A stretch of DNA of 64,000 bases from Fimbriiglobus sp. (lineage in GTDB: Bacteria > Planctomycetota > Planctomycetia > Gemmatales > Gemmataceae), in contig JAYTUC010000027.1 in the NCBI GenBank assembly GCA_043744775.1, positions 11,940 to 75,939 on the forward strand. The letters run 5' to 3'. Made by a program: the position numbers and the translations under genes. This document shows, piece by piece, positions 36,068 to 64,000 of the stretch (positions are counted from its first letter, which is position 1; each line of letters starts with the position of its first letter). Under the pieces are notes generated by a model. The model made no database searches. It was not told where the DNA came from and worked only from the letters and a program-made list of their open reading frames with translations.

Positions 36068-36068
36068 G

Positions 36069-36446: not shown

Positions 36447-36452
36447 CGCGGC

Positions 36453-39878: not shown

Positions 39879-39984
39879 GGGGCCGCCGTCTGGGGTAGTC
39901 GGGGTGAGTCTGTGAGTGGCGTTAGTGTGCGGAGTCGCCCACGCCCGGTCAAGCGAATTGTCGTCGTGCAACCGTCGAAGTGGC

Positions 39985-40056
39985 GGCGAGCCGGAAGCGT
40001 CAGCGCCCGGAGTCTTCGCGTGGACGGACTCCGGGCGCTGACTCTTCCGGCTCGCC
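39985..40056. repeat. 30-bp inverted repeat of the GGCGAGCC...GGCTCGCC family (1 mismatch, 12-nt loop)
   Basis: GGCGAGCCGGAAGCGTCAGCGCCCGGAGTC (39985-40014) pairs with GACTCCGGGCGCTGACTCTTCCGGCTCGCC (40027-40056). Sits between the OM-protein stop and the kinase start. Confidence 0.85.
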
Positions 40057-40059
40057 AAG

Positions 40060-41949
40060 TTAGAACGTCACCACCACCTCGACGAAGCCGGCGACGAGCG
40101 ACGGGGCCTTCGTGTCCTTCGAGTTGTAAAGCTGCCGGAAGCCGTCGCCGGGGATCAGCCCCGACACGCCGCCCAACAAGATGATGTTGTTGTTCAGCCG
40201 CGGCCGCCACTCCACACCCGTGCTCAGGTCGGTGCCGATGTAGCGGTCGAGCTGGCTCTGGAAGGTGAACGTCTCCAGCGACGCCGTCTTGTCGAAGAAC
40301 AGCGCGTTGACGTTGTTGATCGAGCGCAGCCGCGGCGTCACCTCCACGTCGGCCCCGAAGCCGACGAGCCACAGGCCGGGGTTGACGAAGTTGCTCTGGC
40401 CCTGCACCCGGCTCGACCGCAGGTTGGCGTACTGGCTCTGGTCGTTGGTCAGGCCGACGCCGAACAGCGGGATGCGCTGGCGACGCCAGAAGGCGAACTC
40501 GCCGCCGAAGTTGGTCTGGTCGATGATGCCGTCGAAGCCGGTGGCCCGCGAGTTGTTGGTGTTGCCGTCGCCGGACTGGTACAGCCCGCTCGCCTTGAAG
40601 CGCACCCAGTCGCGGTCGTAGGACAGCTCGAGCGCGGCCATCTGCGCGGAGATGGTCTGCTCGCTGCCGGCCAGCGGGTTCAGGCTGTCCTTGCCGAGCA
40701 CCCAGTACGCGGCGTGCGAGACGTTGTAGCGGCCGATGTGACCGTCGCCGGCCAGGCCCAGGTAGACCGCCTGCACGCGGTGCTCCTGGAACACCCCCAC
40801 CGGGTCCGGCCGCACCAAAAATCCGTTGCGGTCGAAGCGCGTCCGCGAGGCGTCGTCGTTGTAGTGGACGCTCGCCGAGGCGGTGTAGCCGGGGACGAGG
40901 AAGTCTTGCCGGTAGACGTTGGCGATCACGATATTCTGGTTGCGGTCCTCGAATGTGTTGAGCTGGCTGTTGGTGTCTTTTTCGAGCTGGCGGAAGTAGG
41001 CGAGGTTGAACTGCGTGCGGTTGCCGCCGAGGTTGCCGAAGAGCCGCACGCCGCGGTTCACGTCGCTGAAAATGAAGCCCCGGAAGTCGCTGGTGAACGG
41101 CTGGCTGCCGGCCCGCACCGAGACGAAGTCGTACTGCGAACTCAGGTCGGCCAGCTTGTACTCAGCGAACCACTCCTGGAGCGTCGTCCACGTCTGCGTC
41201 CGGGTCGTGCCCTCGCGCACGTCGGGGCTGACCACCGCGAGTTCCTGGGCCGCCAGGCTGTTCAGGTTGAACGCCGGGGTCAGCTTCACGCGCCAGTCCG
41301 GCGGCTTGAACGAGGCGTCGCCGCGGGTGATGTCGGCCGACACCGTGAGCAACTGCTGCGTGGCGAACTGGCCGTTGCGGCCGAAGAAGTCCGCCGAGTT
41401 CGGCCGCGCCGTGCTCTCGAACGGCGTCGTCGCTGTCGGGATCGCCCGGCCTTCCATCAGCGAACTCAGGCTGCCCGAGAGGTTGAGGAAGATGTCCTGT
41501 CCGTAGATCGGGAAGTCGCCCTTGAGGACGTTCTGGTTGAACTGGTCGGCGACGCGGCCGGGCCGGTACGGGTAGTCGAAGACGCGCGGGTGCCCCAGGC
41601 CGTAGCGGTCCCAGCCGGGGTAGCCGAGTCGCCAGCGGTCTTCGATCGTGTCGTACTCGACGTTGTTCCCGCTGCGGGGCAAGATGCCACTCGGCCCGGT
41701 GTAGCCCGGCGGCGGCGGGTAGCGGTACTCGACCGGCTCCACAGCAACCGCCGGCAGCTTGACCGGAGCGACCGGCGGCGGCTCCAACTCGCGGTCGAGC
41801 GGGCGCGTCATCGGGGCCTGCGTCACGACCAGGCTGGCCCGCGTCAGGACGGAGTTGCGCAGCAGCGGCGCGGGGTCGGCGGCCGCAGCAGGGCTTCCCC
41901 CGAGTGCCAGCGCGAGTCCCAGGAGGCGGATGCGTCCGACGCCGGCCAT
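40060..41949 (-). CDS. Putative outer-membrane beta-barrel protein (porin/alginate-export-like)
   Basis: Start ATG 41949 with signal peptide 'MAGVGRIRLLGLALALGGSPAAAA'. Aromatic/Gly/Asn-rich alternating pattern. C-terminal '...GFVEVVVTF' ends in Phe. Confidence 0.55.
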   Translation of the reverse strand: MAGVGRIRLLGLALALGGSPAAAADPAPLLRNSVLTRASLVVTQAPMTRPLDRELEPPPVAPVKLPAVAVEPVEYRYPPPPGYTGPSGILPRSGNNVEYDTIEDRWRLGYPGWDRYGLGHPRVFDYPYRPGRVADQFNQNVLKGDFPIYGQDIFLNLSGSLSSLMEGRAIPTATTPFESTARPNSADFFGRNGQFATQQLLTVSADITRGDASFKPPDWRVKLTPAFNLNSLAAQELAVVSPDVREGTTRTQTWTTLQEWFAEYKLADLSSQYDFVSVRAGSQPFTSDFRGFIFSDVNRGVRLFGNLGGNRTQFNLAYFRQLEKDTNSQLNTFEDRNQNIVIANVYRQDFLVPGYTASASVHYNDDASRTRFDRNGFLVRPDPVGVFQEHRVQAVYLGLAGDGHIGRYNVSHAAYWVLGKDSLNPLAGSEQTISAQMAALELSYDRDWVRFKASGLYQSGDGNTNNSRATGFDGIIDQTNFGGEFAFWRRQRIPLFGVGLTNDQSQYANLRSSRVQGQSNFVNPGLWLVGFGADVEVTPRLRSINNVNALFFDKTASLETFTFQSQLDRYIGTDLSTGVEWRPRLNNNIILLGGVSGLIPGDGFRQLYNSKDTKAPSLVAGFVEVVVTF

Positions 41950-42120
41950 AACCGCCCCCTCCGTGCGTGACACTACCCCCGCGACAGGTATCGGACGGAC
42001 CGGCGGTCGGACTGTAGCGGTTGGGCAATCTCTGCCGATTATTCCAGAATCGCGTCGAGAGTTGGGCCACCGCGTCCCGATAAGACTCACGTCCCGCGCC
42101 GCCACCTCGGAGTCTCCGCC

Positions 42121-44469
42121 ATGCCCGGCCGCCCCACCCCGAGCCGCGGGCCGTTGCACTGCGAGCGGCTCGAAGCCCGCGACGTGCCGGCCTCGACGGC
42201 GACCCTCGCCGGCGGCGTGCTGACCGTGACCGGGACCGCCGGGGCCGACCGCCTCCACATCACCGAAGTCGCCGGCACGATCGCCGTCGATGATGGCAGC
42301 ACCCACGTCGGCGACTTCGCGGCGGCCGCCGTGACCGCGCTCGTCGTGGACGCCGGCGCGGGCAACGACGCGGTGACCGTCGGCCCGACCGTGGCCGCGC
42401 CCGCCACCCTGCGTGGCGGCGACGGTAACGACCGGCTCTCCGCCGGCGGCGGCCCGGCGACGCTCGACGGCGGCCCCGGCGACGACCTGTTGCGGGGCGG
42501 CCTGGCCTCGACGGCGTTCGTCGGCGGCCCCGGCCGCAACGAGTTCGTCCGCGTCCGCCCGACCGACATCGCCGTCCCCGGCCCGCAGGACCGGCTGTTG
42601 CTCGACACGCCCGACCCGGCCACCGGCCCCGCCCCGACGCTCTCGGCGGACGACGTGACGGCCCTGCTCCGCCGCGCCGCCGCGGCGTCCGCCAGCTCCG
42701 ACGGCATCTTTGTCGTGGTGGACCGCGGCGGACGTATTCTGGGCGTGCGCGTGGAGTCGGGCGTCGCCACGGAACTCACGTCGGACCCGGCGCTCTTGGC
42801 CTTCGCCGTCGATGGGGCAGTGTCGCTAGCCCGCACGGGGGCGTACTTCGCCAACGACCAGGCCCCGCTCACGTCGCGCACCATCCGTAGCTTGAGCCAA
42901 TCGACGATCACCGAGCGCGAGGTCAACTCGAACCCGAACGTCACCGACCCCAACTCGACCGTGCGCGGCCCCGGCTTCGTGGCCCCCGTGGGGATCGCCG
43001 GGCACTTCCCGCCGGGCATCGCCAACACCCCGCAGGTCGATTTGTTCCAGATCGAGCACACCAACCGCGACGCCACCTTCGCCCCCGGCCCCGACGGCGT
43101 CCGCGGCACGGCCGACGACGTGGCGCTCGCCCGGCGCTTCAACGCCGACCCCGCCTTCGTGACCCCCGGCCAGGAACTAGTCCCGCCCGACGGCTACGGC
43201 GCGACCTCCGGCACCGGCGGCGTCACGGCCAACGGCCGGCCGGTGTCGCAGGGCCGCGGCATCGCGACGCTGCCCGGCGGCGTGCCGATCTTCAAGGGCG
43301 GCCAGCTCGTCGGCGGCCTCGGCGTGTTCTTCCCCGGCAAGACCGGCTACGCCACCGAGGAGAACTCGCCGCTCGGCACCACCTACGACCCGTCGAAGCC
43401 CGACCGCACGCTCGAGGCCGAGTGGGTCGCCTTCGCCGCCGCGGGCGGCACGCAGAGCGCCATCGGCGGCGTGCCGACGACGCCCATCGGCGACCTCGGC
43501 GGCGTGCCGCTGCCGGCGGGAATCGGCTCGCCGGCCGGCCGCATCGACCTCGTCGGCATCACGCTCGACGTGTTCGGCCCCGGCGGCACCGACCGCGGCC
43601 GCGACGCGCTCATCGCCGAGAGTCGGGCCGTCGGCCGCGGCTCGCCGGACGACGGCACCAACCTCCGCGTCACGCCCACGAACATCACGATCCTCGCCGG
43701 CCTCGCGGTGCCCGACGGCTGGCTGGTCCGGCCGCACTCCGGCGACGGCGTCACGCAAGCCGAAGTCGAGCGCATCATCGCGCGGGGCCTCGAGCAGGCG
43801 GCCAAGACGCGCGCGGCGATTCGCTTGCCGCTGGGCAGCCGGGCGAAGTTCGTCTACGCCGTGGCCGACCGCCGCGGCAACGTCGTCGGACTGTACCGCG
43901 AGCCGGACGCGACGGTCTTCTCGATCGACGTGGCGGTCGCGAAGGCCCGCAACGTCGCCTACTACGCCGACGCCGCGGCCCTCCAACCGATCGACCGCGT
44001 CGCCGGGGTCCCGGCCGGCACGGCGCTCACCAACCGGACCTTCCGCTACCTGGGGCTGCCGCGCTTCCCCGAGAGCGTGGAGGGGTCGTCGCCCGGCCCG
44101 TTCTCGCAGCTCAACGACGGCGGCGTCGATCCTGGCACCGGCCGGCAGGTCGGCCCGCCGTTGCCGGCGTCGGCGTACCAGAGCGTCGTCGGCTACGACG
44201 CCTTCCACCCCAGCACCAACTTCCGCGACCCGGCCGACCAACTCAACCAGGACGGCATCGTCTTCTTCCCCGGCAGCGCCCCGCTCTACCGCGGCGCGCT
44301 GCTCGTCGGCGGCTTCGGCGTCAGCGGCGACGGGGTCGATCAGGACGACGTGACCACGATCGGCGGCCAGTCCGGCTTCGAGCCGGCCGGGGTGCTGAAG
44401 GCCGACGAGGTGTTCGTCGGCGGCGTGCGGCTGCCGTACCAGAAGTTCAACCGCAACCCCGAAGGCTGA
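42121..44469 (+). CDS. Secreted protein with RTX-like Gly/Asp repeats and two GlcG/HbpS-like (DUF336) domains
   Basis: N-terminal 'CERLEARDVPAS' planctomycete-type motif. 'GGDGNDRLSAGGGPATLDGGPGDDLL'. DUF336-like 'IFVVVDRGGRILGVRVE' and 'AVADRRGNVVGLYREPDATVFSIDVAVAKARNVAYY...GGFGVSGDGVDQDD'. Confidence 0.6.
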   Translation: MPGRPTPSRGPLHCERLEARDVPASTATLAGGVLTVTGTAGADRLHITEVAGTIAVDDGSTHVGDFAAAAVTALVVDAGAGNDAVTVGPTVAAPATLRGGDGNDRLSAGGGPATLDGGPGDDLLRGGLASTAFVGGPGRNEFVRVRPTDIAVPGPQDRLLLDTPDPATGPAPTLSADDVTALLRRAAAASASSDGIFVVVDRGGRILGVRVESGVATELTSDPALLAFAVDGAVSLARTGAYFANDQAPLTSRTIRSLSQSTITEREVNSNPNVTDPNSTVRGPGFVAPVGIAGHFPPGIANTPQVDLFQIEHTNRDATFAPGPDGVRGTADDVALARRFNADPAFVTPGQELVPPDGYGATSGTGGVTANGRPVSQGRGIATLPGGVPIFKGGQLVGGLGVFFPGKTGYATEENSPLGTTYDPSKPDRTLEAEWVAFAAAGGTQSAIGGVPTTPIGDLGGVPLPAGIGSPAGRIDLVGITLDVFGPGGTDRGRDALIAESRAVGRGSPDDGTNLRVTPTNITILAGLAVPDGWLVRPHSGDGVTQAEVERIIARGLEQAAKTRAAIRLPLGSRAKFVYAVADRRGNVVGLYREPDATVFSIDVAVAKARNVAYYADAAALQPIDRVAGVPAGTALTNRTFRYLGLPRFPESVEGSSPGPFSQLNDGGVDPGTGRQVGPPLPASAYQSVVGYDAFHPSTNFRDPADQLNQDGIVFFPGSAPLYRGALLVGGFGVSGDGVDQDDVTTIGGQSGFEPAGVLKADEVFVGGVRLPYQKFNRNPEG

Positions 44470-53107: not shown

Positions 53108-53578
53108 ATGAGCGCGTTGCGTATCGAGTTGCCGGAGGCGTTGAGGGCCGCGGTCGCCAACCAACTCGCCCAGCGTGGGATCAGCGAGTCGGCGTGGGTC
53201 GAGGAGGCCGTGCGCGAGAAGTTGGCGGCCGAGGCGGAGTTGAAACCCCTCGCGGCGCGGGCGGCACGCGGCAACCGGGCGGCGTTCGAGCGCATCCTGT
53301 CGAAGATACTCGACGCGGAACCCGACCCCGGCGACGCACTTGACTCCGCCCGACTCACGCCCACAGCCGCCGGGCCACGGCCCACGCCGTCGCCCCGAGG
53401 CGGGCGCGAAGCACCTCCTCGCCCGGTTCCGCCGGCGGCAACTCGACGCAGACCATCGCCGCCAGCGTCAGCACCAGCAAACTGCACAGGCTCCAGCCCA
53501 CGTCCAGCGGCGTCACGTCGCCGATCGCCACGGCGTCGTGCAGGCCAAGCAGGTTGGCGAACATGCCGACGGCCATGA
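53108..53578 (+). CDS. Ribbon-helix-helix (antitoxin/CopG-like) small ORF, 3' end doubtful
   Basis: 'MSALRIELPEALRAAVANQLAQRGISESAWVEEAVREKLAAEAE' looks RHH-like. There is no stop until 53578, so the tail overlaps the convergent glycosyltransferase gene by 224 nt. Confidence 0.3.
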   Translation: MSALRIELPEALRAAVANQLAQRGISESAWVEEAVREKLAAEAELKPLAARAARGNRAAFERILSKILDAEPDPGDALDSARLTPTAAGPRPTPSPRGGREAPPRPVPPAATRRRPSPPASAPANCTGSSPRPAASRRRSPRRRAGQAGWRTCRRP

Positions 53579-55031
53579 CCGCGGCCAGCCCGGCGAACAG
53601 GGCGAAGAGTTGCCAGTGGATGATCACGCCGTCGCGCGACTGGCCCTTGGCCGTGACGCGGAACGGCGAGCCGAAAGGGCTGACGAACGACTTCAGCACC
53701 GCCGCCGTCAGGTGGAACGCCGGCACCACCTTGCCGACGGAGCCGACGATCGGCACCACCTTGCCCTCCGACAGCCAGTACATGATCACCGCCCGCGCGG
53801 TCACCCGCGGGATCACGAAAAGCATCACGTCGGTGGCGGTCGCGTGCAGCGCCGGGATGCCGGCGTACCACTGGACGATCGGGGCCAACAGCAACAGCAC
53901 CAGGAACGGGAAGGTCAGCCAGTAGACCACCGTCTCGAAGTAGAACAGGCGCTGCAACAGGCTCAGGCCGGGTGCCCTGAAGGGGCCGGACTCCAGGAAC
54001 ACCTGCTGCATCGTCCCCTGACACCACCGGACCCGCTGCTTGATGTACTCCGGCACGCTCTCGGGGGCCAAGCCGTCGCTCAGCGGCTCGTTGAGGAACA
54101 CAGTCCGGTAGCCCTTGCCCCGCAGTGCGTACGAGAGTTGCAAGTCTTCGGAGAGCGACCCCTGGGCGAAGCCGCCGAGGGTTTCCAGCGCGGCGCGACG
54201 CACGACGAAGCCGGTGCCGACGCAGAAGGCGTTGCCCCAGGCGTCGCGGCACGGCTGCGTGACCGTCATGAAGTAGTTCGTCTCCTCCGTCCAGGCCGCC
54301 CCGCCGAAGAGGTTGTGCTGGATCGGGTCCGGGTTGCGGAAGTGCTGCGGCGTCTGCACCAGCCCCACGCCCGGCCCGTAGACCAGGAAACCGAGCGTGC
54401 GGTAGATCAGGTGCGGCTTGACGACGAAGTCGGCGTCCAGGCACAGGATGAAGTCGCCGTCGGTGCGTGGGTAGGCGTAGTTCAGGTTGCCGGCTTTGCC
54501 GTGTTCGTTACTCGGCCGCGCCAGGTAGCCTACCCCCCGGCGCTCGCACAGTTCGCGCAGCCACGGCCGCCGGCTGTCGTCGAGGACCCAGACCCTCAGC
54601 AGGTGCATCGGGTAGTCGAGGCCCAGCGCCCCGACAATGGTGTCGTCGAGGATGTCGGCCGGCTCGTTGTAGGTCGCGATGTACACGTCCACCGTCGGCA
54701 GGTCAGCCGAGGCCCGCAACCGGGTCTCGTAGCCGTCGGCCTCGGGAGTGCGGTTGATGTAGCCGGTCAGCACGTACAGGCACCAGCCCTCGTAGACCAG
54801 GGCCACGGCTTCGAGCGCGAAGAAAGTCCAGGGCCACAGTGCCGCCGGCGTCCAGTCGAACGCCGGCAGCGTTTGGGTGACCCGCCAGGTGGCGTAGTAG
54901 GCCGTCAGCCCTGCCATGAGGCCGACGACCAGCCACCGGGCGGCCGCGACGCTCACCGGGAGGCGGTAGAGGGCGAGCATCAGGCCGAGCGGCAGCAACA
55001 GGTTCATCAGGAGCCGGTCGTCGAGGCTCAT
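53355..55031 (-). CDS. Processive family-2 glycosyltransferase, cellulose-synthase (BcsA/CelA)-like, no PilZ domain
   Basis: 'VDVYIATYNEP', 'VWVLDDSRR', 'HGKAGNLN', 'ILCLDADF', 'VQTPQHF', 'GSLSEDLQLS', 'QRVRWCQG' (QxxRW). Multiple TMs at both ends. ATG 55031 overlaps the HlyD stop (ATGA). Confidence 0.85.
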   Translation of the reverse strand: MSLDDRLLMNLLLPLGLMLALYRLPVSVAAARWLVVGLMAGLTAYYATWRVTQTLPAFDWTPAALWPWTFFALEAVALVYEGWCLYVLTGYINRTPEADGYETRLRASADLPTVDVYIATYNEPADILDDTIVGALGLDYPMHLLRVWVLDDSRRPWLRELCERRGVGYLARPSNEHGKAGNLNYAYPRTDGDFILCLDADFVVKPHLIYRTLGFLVYGPGVGLVQTPQHFRNPDPIQHNLFGGAAWTEETNYFMTVTQPCRDAWGNAFCVGTGFVVRRAALETLGGFAQGSLSEDLQLSYALRGKGYRTVFLNEPLSDGLAPESVPEYIKQRVRWCQGTMQQVFLESGPFRAPGLSLLQRLFYFETVVYWLTFPFLVLLLLAPIVQWYAGIPALHATATDVMLFVIPRVTARAVIMYWLSEGKVVPIVGSVGKVVPAFHLTAAVLKSFVSPFGSPFRVTAKGQSRDGVIIHWQLFALFAGLAAVMAVGMFANLLGLHDAVAIGDVTPLDVGWSLCSLLVLTLAAMVCVELPPAEPGEEVLRARLGATAWAVARRLWA

Positions 55032-56449
55032 CGGAACCTCGCGTTCGAGAACAGCCAGACGACGGCTTGGTGGCACGGCCCGGCCTCGCAGTCGGCGACG
55101 AGGACCCGGACGTGGCGGCCGATCAGGGCCGCGGGGTCACCGACGCCGGGGTCGAGGTCGATCACGACGCGGAGCTTCCGGGGGTCGTGGTCGGAGGCCC
55201 CGAGGGCGAACGTCGGCTCGTTGTCGCCGGCCCGGCCACTGCGCACCGCCCGGACGCGGCCGCGGAGCGACGGGCCTCCGGTCACGTTGACCACCGCCGG
55301 GGCACCGGCCGTCACCGAGCCGAGGTAGCCCTGGTGGACGACGGCCTCGACGAACACCGTGCCGCCGTCGGCGATCTCGTACAGGACCTCGTTCTGCTTG
55401 ACCCCCTGGCCGCGGTTGCCCTGGCGCACCCAGACGGTGCCGCCGGCGGGGGCGACCGCCGTCGCCAGGGCCAGCCGCCCGGTGCGGCCCCGCTCGCGGT
55501 CGATCTCGGCCTCGACGCCGCTGAGCAAGTCGGCGGCCTCCTTCAGCGAGGCCTTCAGGGTCGGCACCTTGAGCGCGAGTTCGTCGGCCCGCTGCTGGAA
55601 GTGCGGCGAGTCCTTCTGCAGGAACAGCCCCTGCTTCGCGGCCTCCAACTCGGCCCGCCACTTGGCGACCGTCGCCTGGTCGGTGTCGAGGCGGATGCGG
55701 CAGACCGACTCCGACTCCCGCGCCGCGTCGAGTTCGGTTTCGCTCAGGCCGGCCCCGCCCCGCTTGGCCCGCTCCAGCCGGCGGGCGGCCGTCTCGTGCT
55801 CGACCTTGCCCGAGCGCGCCTTGGACTCGGTCTCCTTCAGGCTCGCCTCCAGGTTGGCGACCACGGCGTCGCGGTAGCGTGCGGCCTCGGCACGGCAGAG
55901 TTCCTCGTTGCGGACCACCTCGCCCAGTTCGCTCTCGAGGCGCTCGCGGCGGGTGACCAGTTCGGACTGGCGGCCGGTCAGGGCGGTCAGCCCCGACGTG
56001 TCGAGGTGGCGGTTGACCAGGCGGGCCATCGGCTGGCCGGGGGCCACCGGGTCGCCGACGTCGAAGCTCAGGTCCGAGGCGGTGCCGTCGATCGGGGCGC
56101 GGACCTGGACCGTCCGGGCGTTGACGACCGCCTCGCTCGTAACGGGGAACACCAGCGGCAAGACCAGCCACCACAGGGCCGCGACGACGAGCGCCACGCC
56201 GACCGTGCGGCGGGCCGCCGCGGTGGCCCACTGGCGGAGGGTTCGCCGCGGGGCGGGGCGGGCCGGGGTCGGGGCAGCCGGCAGTGCCAGCGCCGGTGCC
56301 GGTGCCGGTATCGTCTGGGCCGTCAGGGGGACCATTTGCTCGGTCGGCGACAACGTCGAAGTCGCCGGCGCGGGCTGTTGCTGGGCCGGCAGCGTGGCGT
56401 GGGTGCGGGGGTGCCCGACGGGGGCAAGCTGGACGCTCGAATCTGTCAT
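55028..56449 (-). CDS. HlyD-family membrane-fusion / periplasmic adaptor protein
   Basis: Start ATG 56449. TM 'VGVALVVAALWWLVLPLVF'. 'SEAVVNARTVQVRAPIDGT' lipoyl-like segment. Long coiled coil. 'APAGGTVWVRQGNRGQGVKQNEVLYEI'. Confidence 0.8.
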   Translation of the reverse strand: MTDSSVQLAPVGHPRTHATLPAQQQPAPATSTLSPTEQMVPLTAQTIPAPAPALALPAAPTPARPAPRRTLRQWATAAARRTVGVALVVAALWWLVLPLVFPVTSEAVVNARTVQVRAPIDGTASDLSFDVGDPVAPGQPMARLVNRHLDTSGLTALTGRQSELVTRRERLESELGEVVRNEELCRAEAARYRDAVVANLEASLKETESKARSGKVEHETAARRLERAKRGGAGLSETELDAARESESVCRIRLDTDQATVAKWRAELEAAKQGLFLQKDSPHFQQRADELALKVPTLKASLKEAADLLSGVEAEIDRERGRTGRLALATAVAPAGGTVWVRQGNRGQGVKQNEVLYEIADGGTVFVEAVVHQGYLGSVTAGAPAVVNVTGGPSLRGRVRAVRSGRAGDNEPTFALGASDHDPRKLRVVIDLDPGVGDPAALIGRHVRVLVADCEAGPCHQAVVWLFSNARFR

Positions 56450-56553
56450 GATGTTCTCTCGACGGTGAACAGAGCCAAAACCCGTCGGGGATTCCAGGTC
56501 GTGGGCGGAAACTTGAAGACGACTTCGCGGCACTTCAGGATTCGCGTTTCCGC

Positions 56554-56582
56554 GAAAACCGGCCCATGAATACGGGCCGGCC
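56554..56582 (-). terminator. Intrinsic-terminator-like hairpin on the minus strand (CCGGCCC-N8-GGGCCGG followed by TTTTC)
   Basis: Minus-strand read: GGCCGGCCCGTATTCATGGGCCGGTTTTCGCGG. About 105 nt upstream of the HlyD start and about 370 nt downstream of the stop of the 56953-58722 gene. Confidence 0.4.
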
Positions 56583-56952
56583 TGCAGGACGAAAAGTCGG
56601 GGGGTTATTGGCAACTTGAATGCCGATTGCGACGATCGGGCGAAGTCTCTGACCGGGGGAGTGCCTCAAAACGTGCCGAAACGGCCCCTAAACCGACAGT
56701 TTCGCTACGCTTGCAGCGGATGCGTAGATGTCGTGAAAAGTCGGGTGGGCCGCGAACGTCGTACGCTACCGTACAGTAGTAACGCTGCGCAAGAAGTGCA
56801 CAACGCATGCTGAACTCGATCGCAACTGCTTAAGAAGTCGGCAGAAAGTTGAACTGGCACGGGCATTACAGATAATTGAAGATAATATGTGGAGGATGCT
56901 AGGTTGTAAACCACAATGAACAGGACACGTTCCTACACAAATTGAACGGCTA

Positions 56953-58722
56953 TTACTCGGCAAATACTTGGGCGGGGAGTCGGAGGCCGCCGGCGGCGTC
57001 GAACAGGCCTGGAACGAGCAACTCGACGACGCGGCCGGTCGTAACGCGGCAGCCGGGCAATAGGGTGACCCAGCCGTCGGGGTGGTCGAAGACGTTGGCC
57101 GGCTCGAAGGGGCGCACGCCGAAGGGCCCGTCGAGCAGTTGGGCGAGCGCGTGCGCGAAGCCCTCGGCCCCGTCGGGGTCGGCGGGGTGCCAGGTCGGCC
57201 GAACGCGGCCCCAGAAGAGTTGGAACAGCTCGACCGCGGCGAGTTCGAGGTAGCCGTGCAGCGCGGCCGGCCGCAACCCGGCGAGCGCGGCCTTCAACTC
57301 GTCCCGCGAGTCCGCCGGCGACGAGGGCACGAGGGCCTCGAGTTCCGCGCAGCCCGGCGGTTGCGGCCCGGCGCTGACGACGACCTCGGCCGGGCGTAAG
57401 GTCCGCCCGCCGGCGGCGAGGCCGAAGGCGCGGACGCGGACGACGCCCCCGGCCGGCGGGGCGTTGCGGAAGACCGGCACCGCCCGGACGCCGGTGACCG
57501 CCTCGTCGGCCGCGGGGTCGTAGCCGGCCGCCCCGACGAGCGTCGCGCCGCACCAGTGGGCAAGGCGCGTCAGCGTCGGCCCGGCGGCGGCGGCGGCCAC
57601 CGGCGAGTCGGGCGGCGTCGCGGCGTCGAGCAGCGCCGCCAGCCGCGCGGCGTCGGGGGCCGCGCCGGCCAAGTAGCCGTCGAGGTGCGGGCCGATGGCG
57701 GCCTGCCAAGCCGGCTCCGTTGACAGCGCCCACAGGTCGTAAGCGGCGGACGCGGCCGACGGCTCCGGCCCCAGGCTCACGGCGAACCGCGCCGCCGCCG
57801 GGTCGGTGTCGATGCGCTCGGCGGCCACGACAGTGCCCAGGGGCCGCGCGGCGAATTCGCCGCGCAGTCCCGGCTGCGACAGCGGCACCCCGGCCGGCCA
57901 GACCCAGCCGTCGGCCGTCGGCGTCGGGTATAGAGTCGTCGGGGCCTTGGGTCCGGTGCTGACGCGCCAGGTTGGCCGGGCCGGCGGCGCGGCGAGACGC
58001 GCGACGCCGACGACGGTGCCGGCCGGCTCGGGCGACTCGACGCCGGCGGTGGGGTCGGCGGGGTCCGGCGGGTCCAGCGGCCGCAGGGTCACGGGGTCGA
58101 GGCGTGGCCGCAGCCCCGGCGCGGCCCGGCCCAGCTCGCGGTAGAAGAACGCCAACTCCGGCGACGGACCCTCGGCCGCGAGCCTCGCCTCGAAGTCGCC
58201 GCCGGGCACGACGCGAACCGCCAGGGCGTCGCGGGTGCCCGCCGGCAGGCCGGGGACGCCGGCGAAGAAGTGGTCGCGCAAGCCGGGCCAGTCGTCGGGG
58301 CACGGGTCGGGGGCCGGGGGCCACGGCGCGACCGACTCGCCGAGGCGGCCCAGGCGCACCGCGGGGTCGGCGTCGGCGAGCGCGGCCAGCGCGGCGTCGA
58401 GGGCGGCCGCGAGCGTGGCGAGGTGGTCGAGCCGCGCCGTCAGTGCCGGGTCGGGCGTGGACCAGACGGCGACGGGGCCACCGAGGAGGCGGTTGAGCGC
58501 GCCGCCGCGTGCCGCGCGGGCCTTGCGGGCGAGCAGCCGGTGCGGCCGGAAGTCCGCCCACGCGGCCACGACGGCGGCGGCGTGCCAGGCGTCCGGCGGC
58601 GGCGGCGTCACCCCGCGGCGCAGCGCCTCGGCCTCGGCGGCGCAGCCGGGCAGCCGCCCCAGCGCGGCGGCGTACTCGGCCCAGGCGGCGGCGAGTCCGG
58701 CCGGCCACGGCCGCGCGGGCAC
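56953..58722 (-). CDS. Orphan Ala/Pro/Leu-rich protein (589 aa), last gene of the dynamin/Hsp70-like operon
   Basis: GTG 58722 lies 2 nt after the Hsp70-like stop. The frame is continuous to TAA at 56953. The 5' 2.1 kb of the 1303-aa ORF (to 60864) is an Arg-rich shadow over the Hsp70-like gene. No known motif recognised. Confidence 0.55.
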   Translation of the reverse strand: MPARPWPAGLAAAWAEYAAALGRLPGCAAEAEALRRGVTPPPPDAWHAAAVVAAWADFRPHRLLARKARAARGGALNRLLGGPVAVWSTPDPALTARLDHLATLAAALDAALAALADADPAVRLGRLGESVAPWPPAPDPCPDDWPGLRDHFFAGVPGLPAGTRDALAVRVVPGGDFEARLAAEGPSPELAFFYRELGRAAPGLRPRLDPVTLRPLDPPDPADPTAGVESPEPAGTVVGVARLAAPPARPTWRVSTGPKAPTTLYPTPTADGWVWPAGVPLSQPGLRGEFAARPLGTVVAAERIDTDPAAARFAVSLGPEPSAASAAYDLWALSTEPAWQAAIGPHLDGYLAGAAPDAARLAALLDAATPPDSPVAAAAAGPTLTRLAHWCGATLVGAAGYDPAADEAVTGVRAVPVFRNAPPAGGVVRVRAFGLAAGGRTLRPAEVVVSAGPQPPGCAELEALVPSSPADSRDELKAALAGLRPAALHGYLELAAVELFQLFWGRVRPTWHPADPDGAEGFAHALAQLLDGPFGVRPFEPANVFDHPDGWVTLLPGCRVTTGRVVELLVPGLFDAAGGLRLPAQVFAE

Positions 58723-58724
58723 GG

Positions 58725-61364
58725 CTACAGGTCCCCCCGGTTTTGCAGCGAGACGTGCTCGAGCGGGTCGGTCAGGTCCTCGTAGTCGGACTCCTCGCCG
58801 TTGGAGGTCACCACGAAGCGGCTCTGCTCGTCGTCGTAGTCGATCTGCGCCGCCGCGGTGAGGCCCTCGCGGAAGGTGTACGATGCGAAGCGCGAGTAGC
58901 GCGGGTCGCCGGGGAACTTGCGCTCCAGCACCAACGTCTCGGCCTGGCCCGAGGCGGTCAGCCGCATGGCGAGCGACTGCGCTTTGGCGAGCTCCTCGTA
59001 GCGGGTGAACTCCGGGAAGATCATCTTGTGGCTGTTGTTGTGCATCTCGTGGACGCCGACCTCGTAGGGCAGACGCTCGCTGAGGTCGGCCGGGTATTGG
59101 ACGGCGGCCGTGCGGACCACGCGCCCCATGAGCCGCGCCATGACGGCCCCCTTGGCGACGGCGTGCTTGAGGTTGTCCGAGTCGAAGGTGAAGCGGTCGC
59201 CGCCCTCCTCGGTCAGCCCGGCGACCCGCAGCGTCTCGCGCAAGAGTTGTCGCACGAGCGGGTAGCGGGCCGCGTTGCCCGACAGCACGACCCACTCGAC
59301 CTCGGCGGCGACCCCGCCGGCGTCGGGCCGCAGCTTCTCGGCCATCAAGTTGTTGCACTTCGTCACGACGGCCTCGACGTCCGCGCGGACCAAGGCGTCC
59401 ACCTCCCACGGGGCGACGGACACCTCGCCGAGTTGCTGGAGGACCTGCGCGGCCACGGCGGTCGGCTTGCCCTCGAGCGCGAGCCGCACGAGGGCCGAGG
59501 TGCCCTGGAGCAGGTGCGCCGCCGTAAGCTGGGAGAACTTGACCGGCTTGCCGTCGGAGAGCTTGCGCTTCAACTCCTCGGCGAGTTGCCAGAGCGCGCG
59601 GAAGGCGGCCTGGCGGGCGAGCGAGTCGGCGGAGAGGGCCTTGGGGTCGAAGCGCGTCGGGGCGTACTCCGCGGCCCCGCCGGCCGGCGGGCGCAGGGCC
59701 TCGGCCCTGGCCAAGAACGCCTCGACGAGCTTGTTGGCCGCGGCGGGTTCGGCCGGGCCGGCGGACGGCAAGGGGTTCAGTCCGCCGGCGGTCGCGGGCT
59801 GCAACACGCGGGCGAGCAGCGCGGTGAACTTGGCCTTCACGAGCCGGCAGGCGGCGCGGGTGATGTTGTCGCCGCCGAAGGTGCGGACGCCGGTGCGGGC
59901 GAGGACGTCGAGCTTGAGGACGCGGGGGTCCGGGGCGGTGGCGTGGACGAGGACCACGTCGGTGGTGCCGCCGCCGCAATCGACGACCAGCACGTGCAGG
60001 CCGCGCGGGTGCAGGTAGCGGAAGCGGACGAGCGCGCCGGGCCGCTCGAAGACGCGGCGGTGGACATGGAAGAAGGCGGCCGCCGTCGCCTCGTCCATCG
60101 TGAGCTTCACCAGCGGGCACGCGGCGGACTTGCGGCCGGGGTCGGCCAGCCAGCCGCGGCACCGGCCGACGAGGGCGTCGAGCGGGCCGTCGCCGGTCGG
60201 CGTCGCCTCGGCGGCGACCGACTGCGGCTGCTGCATGGTGCGCAGCCAGCCGCGCACGGCCGCCGTGACCAGTTGTCGCAGCTCGCCGCGCGTGTAGGTC
60301 GTCGGGTAGGTCAGCGCCACGTCGGCCGGCCACGCCTTGACCTCGGCGCGGAAGCAACTGAAGGCGTGCGCGAAGATCAACTCGCCGGGGAAGTGGTTCA
60401 TCACCTCCATCTGCTCGGTCTGCGCCGGCCCGCCGTCGGCCGGCAGGTGCGGCACGTTCAGTGCGAAGAACGGCGGCGACTTCGCGGGCTTCGGGGACGC
60501 GGCGGGCGACGGCTCGGGGACCGACAGGAGTTGCTTGACGCCCAGGACGACGCTCTCGCTCAGGCCGTCCGCCCCCGCCAGGGCGACCCGCCCGACGACG
60601 AAGCGGACCGAGTCCGGCAGGTCGTCCGAGGGGCGACTCGGCAGGCGGCGCGTGCCGGCGGCGGCCCCGCCCGGCGTGCGCACCTCGACCAGCCGCACCG
60701 CGGAGGCGAGCAGCCTCGGGTCGGCGGCCCCGCGGTCGAGGCCGATCAGCGCGACCGCCGACGACTCGTAGACCCGCGCGGCGTCGGCCAGCGCCGCGAC
60801 CGAGGTCACCGCGTTGCCCAGGTCGATCGCCATCGCCCCGACGAACATCGGCAGCGGCGTACACGGCCGGCAGGTCAGGTCGAGTCGCGACGCCTGATCG
60901 ACGTACTGCTGGAACTGCTTGCCGTCGAAGTAGCGTAGCTCGACCGGCAGGACCAGTTGGCCGGTGGTGGGGTCGCGGTGCGCCTCGACGGCGGCGCGGA
61001 AGCCGGCGGCGTCCGTGTCGAGCGTCACGACGAGTTCGACGACGCTGCTCGGGGTCAGGCTGGCCGCGAGGTAGGCGCGCTGCTCCAGGAACCCCGCGGG
61101 GGCGAGTTGGGGGCGCGGCACAACGTGGCGGAGGCAGACGGCGTCCAATCCGGCGAGGTCGTCGGCGAAGTGGGCCGCCGGGGTGGCCAGGACGCGGCCG
61201 CTGACGCGCAGCCAGTCCTGGGCACGCGGCCAGTGGACGAGCAGGCCGAACTCGGCGAGCGTGTGGAGGGGGCGGGCCGGGCGGAGTTGCCCGGCGACGG
61301 GGAACGCCTTCTCGACGCGGCCGGCCCGCAGGTAGACTTCGTCCAGCGTGAGCGTGAGGGGCAT
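58725..61364 (-). CDS. Divergent Hsp70/actin-fold ATPase (879 aa) with about 175-aa N-terminal extension
   Basis: Phosphate-1 'AIDLGNAVTS'. Phosphate-2 'VLVVDCGGGTTDVVLV'. Adenosine motif 'VVLSGNAARYPLVRQLL'. SD GAAGGA upstream of ATG 61364. Confidence 0.75.
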   Translation of the reverse strand: MPLTLTLDEVYLRAGRVEKAFPVAGQLRPARPLHTLAEFGLLVHWPRAQDWLRVSGRVLATPAAHFADDLAGLDAVCLRHVVPRPQLAPAGFLEQRAYLAASLTPSSVVELVVTLDTDAAGFRAAVEAHRDPTTGQLVLPVELRYFDGKQFQQYVDQASRLDLTCRPCTPLPMFVGAMAIDLGNAVTSVAALADAARVYESSAVALIGLDRGAADPRLLASAVRLVEVRTPGGAAAGTRRLPSRPSDDLPDSVRFVVGRVALAGADGLSESVVLGVKQLLSVPEPSPAASPKPAKSPPFFALNVPHLPADGGPAQTEQMEVMNHFPGELIFAHAFSCFRAEVKAWPADVALTYPTTYTRGELRQLVTAAVRGWLRTMQQPQSVAAEATPTGDGPLDALVGRCRGWLADPGRKSAACPLVKLTMDEATAAAFFHVHRRVFERPGALVRFRYLHPRGLHVLVVDCGGGTTDVVLVHATAPDPRVLKLDVLARTGVRTFGGDNITRAACRLVKAKFTALLARVLQPATAGGLNPLPSAGPAEPAAANKLVEAFLARAEALRPPAGGAAEYAPTRFDPKALSADSLARQAAFRALWQLAEELKRKLSDGKPVKFSQLTAAHLLQGTSALVRLALEGKPTAVAAQVLQQLGEVSVAPWEVDALVRADVEAVVTKCNNLMAEKLRPDAGGVAAEVEWVVLSGNAARYPLVRQLLRETLRVAGLTEEGGDRFTFDSDNLKHAVAKGAVMARLMGRVVRTAAVQYPADLSERLPYEVGVHEMHNNSHKMIFPEFTRYEELAKAQSLAMRLTASGQAETLVLERKFPGDPRYSRFASYTFREGLTAAAQIDYDDEQSRFVVTSNGEESDYEDLTDPLEHVSLQNRGDL

Positions 61365-61398
61365 CGGTCGGGGTCCTTCGCCGGGGGCCGAGGGGCGG

Positions 61399-63348
61399 TC
61401 ACGAGTTCGCGGTCAGTTGGTCGAGGTCGGCGGCCACCTCGCCGAGGCGGGCGCGCAGCCGGCCGCGGAGCGCCAGCATGGTCGCGTGGACGGTGGCGTC
61501 GATCTTGTGGCACAAGAGGTCGAGGTAGACCGCGCCATCGACGCTGCCGTCGGACGCGGCGGTGAGCCACTGCGCGACCTCGTCGCTCTCGAACTTGGGC
61601 AACCCCGCCCAGGCGTCGGCGGCCGGGGCGGCGTCGTCGTCGCGGATCGCCTGCCAGGCGTCGCGGCAGGTGCCGGCGGTGCCGAGCGGGACGCGGGGCA
61701 GGCCGTCGAGCCGCTGACCGACCTGCTCGTACGCCGGCTCCAGGAGTCGCGCCGTCACCTCGGCCTTGAAGGTCCGCGTCAGCAGTCGCGAGTGCCGGCC
61801 GAACTCTCGCGGCAACTCGGCCGGCGGCATCTGGGTCAGGAAGGGGCGGGTCTGCGGGTTGTCGATCAGGAGCCGCAGGCGGCCGCGGAACTCCTCCGCC
61901 GACTGGAGCATCCCGAAGGCCCCCGGCTCGACGGTCAGGGTCCGCGCCAGCAGCGCCACCGCGACGCGGCAGTTCTCGACCTTCTCGTGCAGTTGCGACC
62001 CGCCGGCGAGCCGCGCCTTCTCGGCCGCGACGCGCCTGTCGAGTTCCTTGCGCACCTTCTCCAAGCCGCGCTCGGCGCTGAGGCGGATCTCGTTCGAGAG
62101 CGAGTCGGCCACGTCGTCGGTGATGAGCTTGCGCAGTTGGCCGATGCCGCCGTCCGCGAGCAGGGCCTCCCAGGCGGGCCGGAGTTCGGGCGGGCAAGTC
62201 TCGGGAATGGGCCGGTCGATCGATTGCTTGAGGCGCTCGGCTGCCCACGCGGCCCGCGCCTCGGCGGGCTTGCGGGCCAACTCCTTGGTCATCTCGTTCG
62301 AGACGAAGCAGACTTGCGACAGCGGCACGCCGTTGTCCTTGAGCAGCCCGCGGACCACGGTGAAGAAGTTCTCGCCGCCGGTGCGGAAGTGCGCGTCGGT
62401 CAGGCCGTCCATGCGCGTGAAGACGAGCCACGAGCGGCCGGCCACGTCGCCCTCGAAGACGCGCTTGAAGCGGTTGATCGCGCCGGTCAGGCTCACGTCG
62501 CACATGTTCGTCGAGGCGTTAACGAAGAGGAGCGCCCCGTTCAAGTGTTCCAGGTAATCGAAGGTGACCACGTCGTCCACGCTGCGCTCGCTGCCGAGGC
62601 CGGGCAGGTCGCAGATTTCGAGGTCCTGCGGCAGCGCGGCGAGGTCGAGGTGGAGGCGGGCTTCCTTGATGAGTAGGGACTGGTCCTCCGTCGCGCCTGG
62701 CGAGTGGGTGGTGTACTTGAGGCGGTCGGCGAAGGGCAGCCCGGCGTCCACGCGGCCCTCGGCCGTGAGGTGGGTCGCGCCGTACTTGCGGGCCGCGCCG
62801 AGGAACTTCTTCAGGTACTCGCGGTCCTTGCGGACGCGCGGGTCGTCCCGGACGGCCACGAACACCTCGTCGTCGTCGAGTTGCTTCAGCAGGTCGTCGT
62901 CCGCCCCAGGGTTCAGCAAGCCGACCTCTTTGCAAAGCCGCAGCCGCCTCGCCTCGTAGTTGGCGGTCGTCAGGTAAGCCACGTCGAGGCTCCTGGCCGG
63001 GGCGCGGAGCAGGCGGGCCGGCTGACTGGACGTGGCGGCACCGGCCCCGGACTTGCAGACTTCGGCGTCGCCGAGCAGGTTGTTGACGGTCGTCGATTTC
63101 CCGGCCTGCGACAGGCCGATGAAGCCGACGGTGTAGCGCGGCCGCGCCATCTCGCCGCGCACCTTCGCCAAAGGCTTCAGCACGGCCTCCTCGAACACCG
63201 CGGTGCCGACGATCTGGCCCACCTCGGCGTCGGCGCGGGTCGCGCGCAGTTGCCCGGCGACCGCGTTGTAGGCGCGGACCAGGTCCGCCCCGGACGGGTG
63301 CCGGGTCAGCAGCGGGCAGTCGATCTCGCGCAAGTCGTCGGTGCTCAT
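61399..63348 (-). CDS. Dynamin-like large GTPase
   Basis: G1 'GLSQAGKSTTVNNLLG'. G3 'ICDLPGLGS' (DLPG as in dynamins). G4-like 'VFTRMDGL'. C-terminal half of about 330 aa is helical-looking. ATG 63348 is preceded by GAGGA (GTG 63363 is an alternative). Confidence 0.75.
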   Translation of the reverse strand: MSTDDLREIDCPLLTRHPSGADLVRAYNAVAGQLRATRADAEVGQIVGTAVFEEAVLKPLAKVRGEMARPRYTVGFIGLSQAGKSTTVNNLLGDAEVCKSGAGAATSSQPARLLRAPARSLDVAYLTTANYEARRLRLCKEVGLLNPGADDDLLKQLDDDEVFVAVRDDPRVRKDREYLKKFLGAARKYGATHLTAEGRVDAGLPFADRLKYTTHSPGATEDQSLLIKEARLHLDLAALPQDLEICDLPGLGSERSVDDVVTFDYLEHLNGALLFVNASTNMCDVSLTGAINRFKRVFEGDVAGRSWLVFTRMDGLTDAHFRTGGENFFTVVRGLLKDNGVPLSQVCFVSNEMTKELARKPAEARAAWAAERLKQSIDRPIPETCPPELRPAWEALLADGGIGQLRKLITDDVADSLSNEIRLSAERGLEKVRKELDRRVAAEKARLAGGSQLHEKVENCRVAVALLARTLTVEPGAFGMLQSAEEFRGRLRLLIDNPQTRPFLTQMPPAELPREFGRHSRLLTRTFKAEVTARLLEPAYEQVGQRLDGLPRVPLGTAGTCRDAWQAIRDDDAAPAADAWAGLPKFESDEVAQWLTAASDGSVDGAVYLDLLCHKIDATVHATMLALRGRLRARLGEVAADLDQLTANS

Positions 63349-63385
63349 CGTCGCCGTCCTCACACCAGTCGGGGGTCGCCGAGGG

Positions 63386-64000
63386 CTACTTCTTGGCGTC
63401 GCGGTCGCGGGCCTGCTTGACGTTCGCCTGCCACGACGTGTCGAAGCGGTCGAGCGCGAACACCTTGCCGACCTCGGCCTTGGGGTGCTGCGTGCGGATC
63501 GCCACCGGCGGGTTCGTGCCGTCGTCGAACTCCCAGACGATCAGCTTGCCGATGGTCTTGTACTTCGCCGCGAGGTCGAACAGGTTCTCGACGCCGATCG
63601 TCCGGCTGAAGCGGCCGCGCGGGTTGTCCTCGGGCAGGCTCAGCTCGTACCACTTCGGGCCGTCGTCGGCCTTGATCGTCGCCGCGCCGGCCTTGACCTG
63701 GTTCTTGCGGATCTCCTGCGACAGCGCCTCGGAGGTCATCTTGGGGTCGCGGAACTTCGCCACCGCGTCCTTCATCCCCGCCTCGTCGAGCGGGTAGTAG
63801 GCCCAGACGCGCTTCACCCGGCTGCTCTTGAGGTTCTCCGCGGCGATCGTCACGTTATCGACGCCGACGGTGTCGTCGCCGGTGTCGTCGGCCGTCGAGT
63901 TCAGCGACGCGAAGGCGAACAGCAGGTCGTCGGCGCGCTTCACGTTGAACGGGTTCGGCACCACGTTGGGGTCGCGCAACTTGTCGAAGAGCAACTCGCG
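63386..64000 (-). CDS. Orphan protein, 5'-truncated at window edge (first visible gene of the dynamin/Hsp70-like operon)
   Basis: Frame open to position 64000. Lys/Asp-rich, globular-looking sequence ('KRVWAYYPLDEAGMKDAVAKFRDPKMTSE...GKLIVWEFDDGTNPPVAIRTQHPKAEVGK'). Its stop lies 37 nt before the dynamin-like start. Confidence 0.6.
   Translation of the reverse strand, partial: RELLFDKLRDPNVVPNPFNVKRADDLLFAFASLNSTADDTGDDTVGVDNVTIAAENLKSSRVKRVWAYYPLDEAGMKDAVAKFRDPKMTSEALSQEIRKNQVKAGAATIKADDGPKWYELSLPEDNPRGRFSRTIGVENLFDLAAKYKTIGKLIVWEFDDGTNPPVAIRTQHPKAEVGKVFALDRFDTSWQANVKQARDRDAKK

Follow-up and report, generated by a model that had tools for sequence, protein, structure and literature searches.

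To our knowledge, bacterial dynamins have few known partners, and hardly any job has been assigned to the Hsp70s of bacteria beyond DnaK, HscA and HscC. Here we analyse a locus that encodes both types of protein side by side. It lies at the end of a 64,000-nucleotide stretch of Fimbriiglobus sp. DNA (GenBank assembly GCA_043744775.1, contig JAYTUC010000027.1, positions 11,940 to 75,939 of the forward strand), called the window below. The locus belongs to a conserved five-gene, membrane-spanning module, X-A-B-C-D, which pairs a dynamin (B) with its own Hsp70-like ATPase (C) and a probably GrpE-like partner (D).

Among described systems, the GAP1-N2 systems and SrfABC come closest to this module. 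The former are a class of predicted nucleoside triphosphate (NTP)-dependent biological-conflict systems, with FGS effectors in planctomycetes (Kaur et al. 2020, eLife, PMC7159879). They include an HSP70+GrpE theme in actinobacteria and firmicutes, accompanied by FNIII-DnaJ or TPR proteins, and dynamin is mentioned nowhere in the text (Kaur et al. 2020, PMC7159879). In SrfABC, SrfA has a degenerate kinase-like domain, a transmembrane helix and a periplasmic domain, and is modelled as binding SrfB, then SrfC; the genes are reported to be flanked by an FGE-family gene and vWA genes, and the products were proposed to form a membrane- or vesicle-borne tripartite toxin platform (bioRxiv 10.64898/2026.09.18.752743).

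We see an even chance that X-A-B-C-D serves conflict or remodelling as a membrane-associated module driven by nucleotides, its Hsp70/GrpE-like pair acting on, or with, the dynamin. The five-gene combination of dynamin, Hsp70-like and GrpE-like proteins has not been described as such before. The original prediction for this DNA, made from its sequence, had recognised no named system in the genes visible there; our literature searches found no description of the gene combination, and PADLOC did not assign it to a named system either.

Gene order and conservation

The original prediction listed four co-directional minus-strand genes, and their order stands after we re-derived the open reading frames and gaps. 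Gene A is represented by its 3' part (63386..64000, minus strand; the last 204 of 438 codons), the remainder lying past the window end. It is followed by gene B (61399..63363, minus), whose product has 654 residues when counted from a GTG start or 649 from the ATG at 63348, the start preferred by gene callers. Gene C (58725..61364, minus; 879 residues) and gene D (56953..58722, minus; 589 residues, GTG start) complete the visible part. The gap between A and B is 22 nucleotides with the GTG start of B or 37 with the ATG; those between B and C and between C and D are 34 and 2 nucleotides. With the ATG start, this is the predicted spacing of 37, 34 and 2 nucleotides. All motifs quoted in the prediction were located as well: GLSQAGKST, DLPG and TRMD in B, and IDLGN, DCGGGTTD and SGNAARYP in C.

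Third-position guanine-cytosine (GC) content of A, B and C is 0.95-1.0, matching the other window genes that pass the same filter. D falls outside this codon-GC filter, and its coding status is based on conserved homologues; its start is backed by an end-to-end alignment with the orthologue of Fimbriiglobus ruber. The genome has a GC content of about 72-75%, so many long spurious reading frames overlap the real genes. Around C and D these are 56953-60864 (1303 residues) and 56933-58708 (591 residues) on the minus strand and 58509-60938 (809 residues) on the plus strand; the first is the D reading frame continuing through C.

We extended the locus past position 64000 with Logan contig L002, which is identical to the window and contains the full gene A (876-2192, 438 residues). 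A further co-directional gene, X, lies upstream and overlaps the start of A, so the operon does not begin with A. The unit is thus a five-gene module rather than the four-gene one originally predicted.

The five products were mapped by tblastn and hidden Markov models (HMMs) onto loci retrieved via the Hsp70-like protein; locus counts are among the matches listed in the genome scan, and absences carry little weight. The order X-A-B-C-D is constant in about 20 planctomycete loci among the matches listed. Order and strand are the same in loci L004, L006, L010, L012, L013, L023-L029 and L034-L037. These come from Fimbriiglobus ruber (L004), a Fimbriiglobus metagenome-assembled genome (MAG; L010), Thermogemmata-type contigs (L006, L024-27, L034) and other Gemmataceae or Planctomycetia contigs (L012, L023, L028, L029, L035-37). 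L013 is contig CAMAWN010000030.1, binned as Candidatus Kuenenia stuttgartiensis. This binning, and hence the occurrence of the module in anammox bacteria, is doubtful because the contig has a GC content of 54%, against about 41% in Kuenenia genomes.

In the most distant X-A-B-C-D loci, C is still about 27-33% identical to its counterpart in the window. Shorter contigs show B-C-D. B adjoins C in every locus except one, L005, the sole locus found with C-D alone, without B, A and X, which marks C and D as the most closely tied of the genes. Since the upstream neighbours of X lie on the opposite strand in L023, L024, L006 and L034, X heads a five-gene operon in these loci.

Some individual loci deserve separate mention. 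L005 (7119-13433) encodes a 921-residue protein without a Pfam match, divergent from C. L012 (7906-12633) has a pair of overlapping reading frames in place of B, another in place of C, and a fragmentary GAP1-N2; these are probably indel errors of a long-read assembly, not real pseudogenes. In L006 (7796-9845), the dynamin-like gene is called as two reading frames (221 and 444 residues), while the near-identical lineage L034 has one 684-residue gene; the split in L006 is either a frameshift or genuine.

The association of dynamin, Hsp70-like and GrpE-like genes also recurs outside close relatives of the window's lineage. In a more distant, non-Gemmata Planctomycetota MAG (L016), genes with Dynamin_N, HSP70 (973 residues; C-family HMM 8e-29) and GrpE-like products stand in a row. 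The trio occurs in one run in an isolate genome too, that of the actinomycete Actinocorallia longicatena JCM 9377 (L015, NZ_BAAAUV010000021.1). There the genes encode a dynamin-like protein (DLP) of 796 residues, a GrpE-like protein of 197 residues (Pfam 1.3e-3; hhalign P 5e-4) and a second DLP of 635 residues. A single reading frame of 1173 residues (L015:5131-8652) fuses an Hsp70 nucleotide-binding domain (NBD; Pfam HSP70 5e-39, DLGGGTFD) to a B-like dynamin, with its P-loop at 434, DLPG at 665 and a B-HMM match of 1e-12; the fusion has no substrate-binding domain (SBD). The same locus encodes a 1103-residue C-like protein (C-HMM 1e-23; Pfam SrfB 0.005) and, further on, a vWA protein. Judged from sequence, nothing else speaks as strongly as this fusion for an Hsp70-type NBD and a dynamin working as one machine.

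The five proteins

B is a dynamin-like GTPase of the mitofusin/BDLP type. The window protein scores 28.1 bits against Pfam Dynamin_N (gathering cut-off 27), and this family is matched by all 11 members of the B family tested, at best with 4e-12. Among solved structures in the PDB, a profile of the B family matches mitofusin-2 (2.7e-7), the cyanobacterial SynDLP (1.3e-5) and the DLP of Campylobacter, Cj-DLP (0.003). The G1 motif GxSQxGKST and the G3 motif DLPG are invariant across the family, and the earlier identification of B as a dynamin-like protein holds on all these counts. The GTPase domain is followed by a C-terminal half of some 300 residues, presumed, as read from the sequence rather than from a model, to be a helical stalk. 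Outside the GTPase domain, near the N-terminus, a DCPLL motif at residues 16-19 is near-invariant in the family, with C16 invariant.

PADLOC gives weak matches of window B to LeoA (9e-5) and LeoBC (0.012), the best in a homologue being 1e-7. We rejected an assignment to the Eleos/LeoABC anti-phage system, as did the original prediction: similarity to LeoA/LeoBC is only weak, each locus has a single dynamin-like gene, and there is no LeoBC partner.

The predicted Hsp70 fold of C is borne out by modelling. An AlphaFold2 model built with 21 homologues reaches a predicted local distance difference test score (pLDDT) of 88.8 and a predicted template-modelling score (pTM) of 0.89. In Foldseek searches of the PDB, it aligns over about 720 columns with complete chains of Hsp70s captured in their ATP-open state: DnaK first (4b9q, 2e-21), then BiP and Ssb. 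The target-normalised TM-score is highest (0.63-0.65) against lid-less Hsp70 constructs. In the modelled layout, an extra N-terminal beta domain (about 1-170) precedes an NBD with inserts (about 176-750) and a beta-rich, SBD-beta-like segment (750-865), and no alpha-helical lid follows. The sequence LPYEVGV resembles TPLSLGIE of DnaK. C is thus modelled as a true, lid-less Hsp70 architecture of NBD, linker and SBD-beta. Since its nucleotide-binding motifs (IDLGN, DEATAAA, DCGGGTTD and SGNAARYP) are invariant in the 21 homologues, C should be an active ATPase.

Sequence methods alone return sub-threshold matches of C to Hsp70, YegD and HscA. Against Pfam HSP70, window C scores 14.4 bits (cut-off 20.6), and the L013 orthologue, at 27.6 bits, lies above the cut-off; 13 of the 21 C members match at E<=1, with a best value of 5e-6. 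A C profile run against 1.84 billion representatives found at least 187 clusters at E<=1e-30 and 1343 proteins at E<=1e-3, a number low enough to indicate that ordinary Hsp70s are mostly unreached. The original prediction had considered that C might group with ordinary DnaK, HscA or HscC; its scores against the NCBIfam models of DnaK, HscA and YegD are 16-22 bits, far under their cut-offs of 331-1019. C thus belongs to a distinct family of 800-1000-residue proteins and does not group with the ordinary paralogues of these chaperones.

Other weak relatives of C were rejected as members of the same system, having no dynamin nearby: L014 and L017-19, all of which have TPR or PP2C-type neighbours, and L020. 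The last, from an Acidovorax MAG, is a different, non-canonical Hsp70 pair: two adjacent Hsp70-fold genes (L020:7310-12214), one of them fused to DUF3731 ("DNA-K related protein", 4e-89).

Conservation of D is confined to its C-terminal 200 residues or so, and the N-terminal two-thirds are variable and rich in alanine and proline. The conserved part consists of two similar units, separated by a helical hairpin in the model. Unit 1 (residues about 390-450; 57373..57555, minus) carries the motif PAGxVVRVxxFGLxxGGRxxRPAEVVVSAG. Unit 2 (residues about 537-589; 56956..57114, minus) carries FGxxxFxPxxxxDHPDGW...TGRVxxLxxPGLxDxxGGLRxPAxVxxE, followed by the stop codon; in a variant reading, its consensus at the extreme C-terminus is TGRVxRVLRPGLxDxxGxLRxPAxVEVE. 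An alignment of the units to each other by hhalign, as an internal repeat, has a probability of 57% (P 1e-4). The model of D, built from 10 close sequences, has a pLDDT of 73.9 overall, 80-90 for residues 320-540 and about 50, that is low confidence, for unit 2.

The original prediction stated that there is no GrpE in the locus, which is probably wrong. NCBIfam GrpE matches with E 0.075, exactly on the unit 1 region; Pfam GrpE (E 0.45) is matched under threshold in two of 14 D members. Compared by hhalign with an alignment of three GrpE C-termini, in which the E. coli sequence was checked against 1DKG, unit 1 gives a probability of 64% (P 6e-5). When the D model was compared with 350,000 PDB chains by Foldseek, GrpE from four species accounted for nine of the 12 top matches, each with E 0.6-1.5; the best local fit spans 72 columns with a root-mean-square deviation of 3.1 Å and 26% identity. 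The strongest support is transitive: the syntenic homologue of D in L016 matches Pfam GrpE at 6e-4, aligns to unit 1 with a probability of 83%, and is matched by the D-family HMM in two separate units. A D profile did not find GrpE among PDB sequences, the link being visible only by structure and profile-profile comparison, and no sequence match of D was seen to the helical part of GrpE with its long N-terminal dimerisation helix.

Weighing these results, we think it likely that D carries GrpE-derived domains, and propose that it is a nucleotide-exchange or NBD-binding partner of C. Its two units in one chain may mimic the asymmetric GrpE dimer. D would then no longer count as an orphan, as it had been described together with A. 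The HPD triplet within the DHPDGW of unit 2 was considered as a J-domain signature and rejected: its histidine is not conserved (H/F/Y).

The other supposed orphan, A, has no Pfam or PDB match. A typical N-terminal signal-peptide-like sequence is present in all homologues, however, and A is predicted to be an exported protein, so the orphan label was incomplete here too.

X consists of an N-terminal domain of about 290 residues, one transmembrane helix and a variable, helical C-terminal (outer) part. A profile of X matches YopO kinase (0.0015) where its catalytic loop and DFG lie, and the LanL kinase region is matched by six of ten X members (best 2.8e-6). The asparagine and the DLG aspartate are invariant, and the HRD aspartate is replaced (GLxxPxNV). 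Because of these kinase-like matches, the replaced HRD aspartate and the single transmembrane helix, X looks like a membrane-anchored pseudokinase-type scaffold.

Possible function and genomic surroundings

About half of the lineages show the module linked to a conflict system of the predicted kind. X is immediately preceded there by co-directional genes: an FGS-type gene (S207, about 210 residues), GAP1-N2 (PF20013) and DO-GTPase2, the product of the last having an N-terminal zinc ribbon, a P-loop GPTGHGKT and a C-terminal beta-helix. The linkage is found in eight related loci: L004, L010, L012, L028, L035, L036, L037 and the P0012 contig. In four of them (L004, L036, L037 and P0012) the genes immediately before X encode PF20013 and PF19993 or Beta_helix proteins; L010, L012 and L035 have tblastn matches to one or both of the GAP1-N2/DO-GTPase2 proteins; and in L028 the upstream gene is visible only as a matching C-terminal signature, ...KRGWFG-stop. 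In a neighbour-joining tree of C, linked loci are placed on three branches, one of them the deep branch of L012. The window groups with L004 and L010, both linked, so the same FGS/GAP1-N2/DO-GTPase2 genes are very probably present upstream of X in its genome, in the region past base 64000.

Three of these loci contain complete planctomycete GAP1-N2 systems with FGS-type, GAP1-N2 and DO-GTPase2 genes (L004:130-5126, L036:115-5081, L037:187-5168). Where the C-terminus of DO-GTPase2 was read (L004, L010, L036), it ends in a conserved tag, ...(K/R)R(G/T)WFG-stop. Neither Fimbriiglobus nor Gemmata nor Kuenenia is listed in the supplement to Kaur et al.

From gene content, folds and synteny we infer binding partners, direction of control and biological role as follows. 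X would be a bitopic inner-membrane protein, its cytoplasmic degenerate kinase-like domain serving as a docking platform. A, exported to the periplasm, would probably pair with the outer domain of X, and together they could form an envelope-spanning sensor or anchor that relays an envelope or invader signal. On the cytoplasmic side, C would cycle ATP and the beta-domains of D would most likely bind its NBD and set the nucleotide cycle. The soluble B, having no membrane anchor of its own, must be recruited by other components, and would then be assembled or disassembled by C at the cytoplasmic membrane; put differently, the Hsp70-like/GrpE-like pair would load, activate or dismantle dynamin assemblies. 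The output would be membrane remodelling (sealing, scission or abortive damage), and the FGS/GAP1-N2/DO-GTPase2 switch, where present, would control the module. As the module lies directly downstream of this switch in about half of the lineages, a conflict- or defence-linked membrane-remodelling output seems most likely. An NTPase-driven conflict or defence module was also one of two readings in the original prediction: it gains support from the GAP1-N2 linkage but none from the AT-rich spacer next to the operon, cited there in its favour, which is an ordinary intergenic region.

Several observations weigh against a conflict-linked dynamin machine of this kind. A hydropathy scan of B shows no transmembrane-like segment or hydrophobic paddle. 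About five lineages have X-A-B-C-D without GAP1-N2 (L006/L034, L024-27, L023, L013): the module can thus act alone, and the linkage could be an island-type co-location. X and the GAP1-N2 genes lie outside the window itself and are deduced from the identical short contig and from relatives. The visible flank within the window consists of ordinary housekeeping genes, no relative of the module was found on the viral contigs searched, and neither C nor the C-like protein of L015 had a tblastn match in the plasmid collection. Run on all module proteins and relatives, PADLOC matched no defence model beyond the weak LeoA/LeoBC similarity of B. The GrpE call on D combines several weak agreeing signals, none significant alone (Pfam sub-threshold, Foldseek E > 0.6). 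Finally, a J-domain protein, which could trigger the ATPase of C, is missing from the module as originally predicted: no DnaJ match was found in A, B, C, D, X or S207, though a J-protein may be encoded elsewhere in the genome.

Ordinary flanking genes, without mobile-element marks among those visible, would be expected of a housekeeping planctomycete membrane module for invaginations, budding division or endocytosis-like uptake, its Hsp70 acting like Hsc70 after dynamin scission. The lack of the module on the viral contigs and of C on the plasmids searched, the isolated five-gene core in several lineages and the parts list itself (membrane protein, dynamin, Hsp70) fit such a role. Yet the family is rare and patchy, with 36 clusters at 90% identity in a word-index search, nearly all from Gemmataceae; its coupling to a predicted conflict system recurs; and no membrane-coat gene of the beta-propeller/alpha-solenoid type was found in the module. 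The related trios occur in an actinomycete and a non-Gemmata planctomycete, organisms not known for endocytosis, and the endocytosis-type scission/uncoating reading of the original prediction receives no direct support. A housekeeping role is in our view unlikely. We regard it as less likely still that the module is a distant relative of proteobacterial SrfABC, in which X would take the place of SrfA, C that of SrfB and B that of SrfC. The components run strikingly parallel: X shares the three-part layout described for SrfA; Pfam SrfB is matched by six of 21 C members (best 5e-5), as well as by the C-like protein of Actinocorallia, and PF10139, presumably the SrfC family, by four of 11 B members (best 0.0013). 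The reported FGE-family and vWA flanks are echoed by the FGS gene here and by the vWA gene of L015. Against this, all these Pfam matches are under the gathering score, X has no SrfA match in NCBIfam and a helical outer domain in place of a lipocalin-like one, the genes are arranged in another order, and nothing in Srf corresponds to A or D; moreover, the evidence for SrfABC as a toxin is poor.

The close coupling of C and D, the only part kept in L005, would also suit a dedicated single-client chaperone, much as HscA/HscB serve IscU. C and D would fold, hold or deliver X, A or B, with the dynamin a mere passenger; C retains an SBD-beta-like clamp, and A (exported) and X (membrane-inserted) are candidate clients. 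We rate this as the least probable of the explanations considered: the Hsp70-NBD::dynamin fusion lacks any SBD, which favours NBD-GTPase cooperation over the holding of clients, the module has no J-domain protein that we could find to deliver one, and B stands next to C in every locus but one. More specific than a conflict or remodelling module in general, and decidedly improbable as a full description, is a dedicated bacterial Hsp70/GrpE-type machine that assembles or dismantles a dynamin polymer on the cytoplasmic membrane, anchored by the pseudokinase scaffold and its periplasmic partner: a prokaryotic counterpart of dynamin-Hsc70. In Gemmata-type planctomycetes, such a dynamin machine could take part in endocytosis-like invagination or in membrane sealing after attack.

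The conserved operon and the one actinomycete fusion point to a direct, testable link of a chaperone-type ATPase cycle to prokaryotic membrane-remodelling GTPases. The GAP1-N2/DO-GTPase systems of planctomycetes gain a defined downstream module, and the module may give a clue to the type of machine encoded by the enigmatic SrfABC operon. Should its GrpE-like nature be confirmed, D, with tandem units in a single chain, would represent a new type of nucleotide-exchange factor.

Downstream, the operon is bounded by an AT-richer intergenic spacer (56450..56952, no strand) outside the module. Its sharp contrast with the operon, remarked on in the original prediction, is real: GC content is 0.55 at 56500-56999 and 0.70-0.81 in the surroundings. 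We rejected the spacer as an island border or an RNA gene: no Rfam family, tRNA or terminator-like site was found in it, and it contains a sigma70-like promoter match for the next genes (56910-56882, minus strand; TTTACA, 17 nucleotides, TATTAT). These encode HlyD-like (55028-56449) and family-2 glycosyltransferase/cellulose-synthase-like (GT2; 53355-55031) proteins.

Further into the window, a response-regulator/nucleotide-cyclase gene adjoins that of a 1201-residue PAS hybrid histidine kinase (34400-40058, minus). Beside these two genes, a 748-residue reading frame (40060-42306) has no Pfam match. A 782-residue protein (42121-44469, plus) pairs a C-terminal HbpS-like haem-degrading domain with a weak RTX-repeat match, an unusual pairing.

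Comparison with known systems

Compared with DnaK-DnaJ-GrpE, the module shares an ATPase with NBD, linker, SBD-beta and intact catalytic motifs, and a GrpE-like partner encoded just 2 nucleotides downstream. However, C is lid-less, with an extra N-terminal domain and large inserts, and its sequence similarity to DnaK is sub-threshold; D has no recognisable long dimerisation helix and two beta-domain units per chain; and the module contains no J-domain protein that we could find.

Bacterial dynamins such as BDLP, DynA, Cj-DLP1/2, SynDLP and those of Eleos/LeoABC resemble B in having a Dynamin_N GTPase domain followed by a presumed helical stalk, in line with the profile matches of B to mitofusin, SynDLP and Cj-DLP and its weak ones to LeoA/LeoBC. 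In contrast to them, B has neither paddle nor transmembrane segment, and each locus has one dynamin-like gene and, instead of a LeoBC partner, an Hsp70-like ATPase.

In eukaryotes, where dynamin is followed by Hsc70/auxilin, a dynamin-family GTPase and an Hsp70-family ATPase are likewise coupled functionally at a membrane. The likeness is an analogy only: the module has no clathrin-like coat and no J-domain (auxilin) equivalent, and there is no sign of shared descent.

SrfABC of Salmonella, Xenorhabdus and Haemophilus combines, like the module, a bitopic degenerate-kinase protein, a large Hsp70/actin-fold-like ATPase and a P-loop GTPase-like protein. It differs in gene order, in the lipocalin-like periplasmic domain of SrfA and in having no exported A-type and no GrpE-like protein, and its homology to the module is hypothetical.

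The HSP70+GrpE theme of the GAP1-N2 systems likewise places an HSP70-family protein and a GrpE-type partner in the neighbourhood of a TRAFAC-class GTPase, and membrane action and extracytoplasmic parts are predicted for these systems as well. There, HSP70 and GrpE are recognisable as such, whereas here a separate 800-1000-residue Hsp70 family is paired with a divergent tandem GrpE-like protein, and the GTPase beside the Hsp70 is dynamin-like. The module adds a kinase-like transmembrane protein and an exported protein, contains no J-domain, FNIII, DnaJ or TPR protein that we could find, and also occurs without GAP1-N2. Altogether, the module is not wholly without precedent: it fits a GTPase-centric, HSP70/GrpE-containing conflict theme, and may be related to SrfABC.

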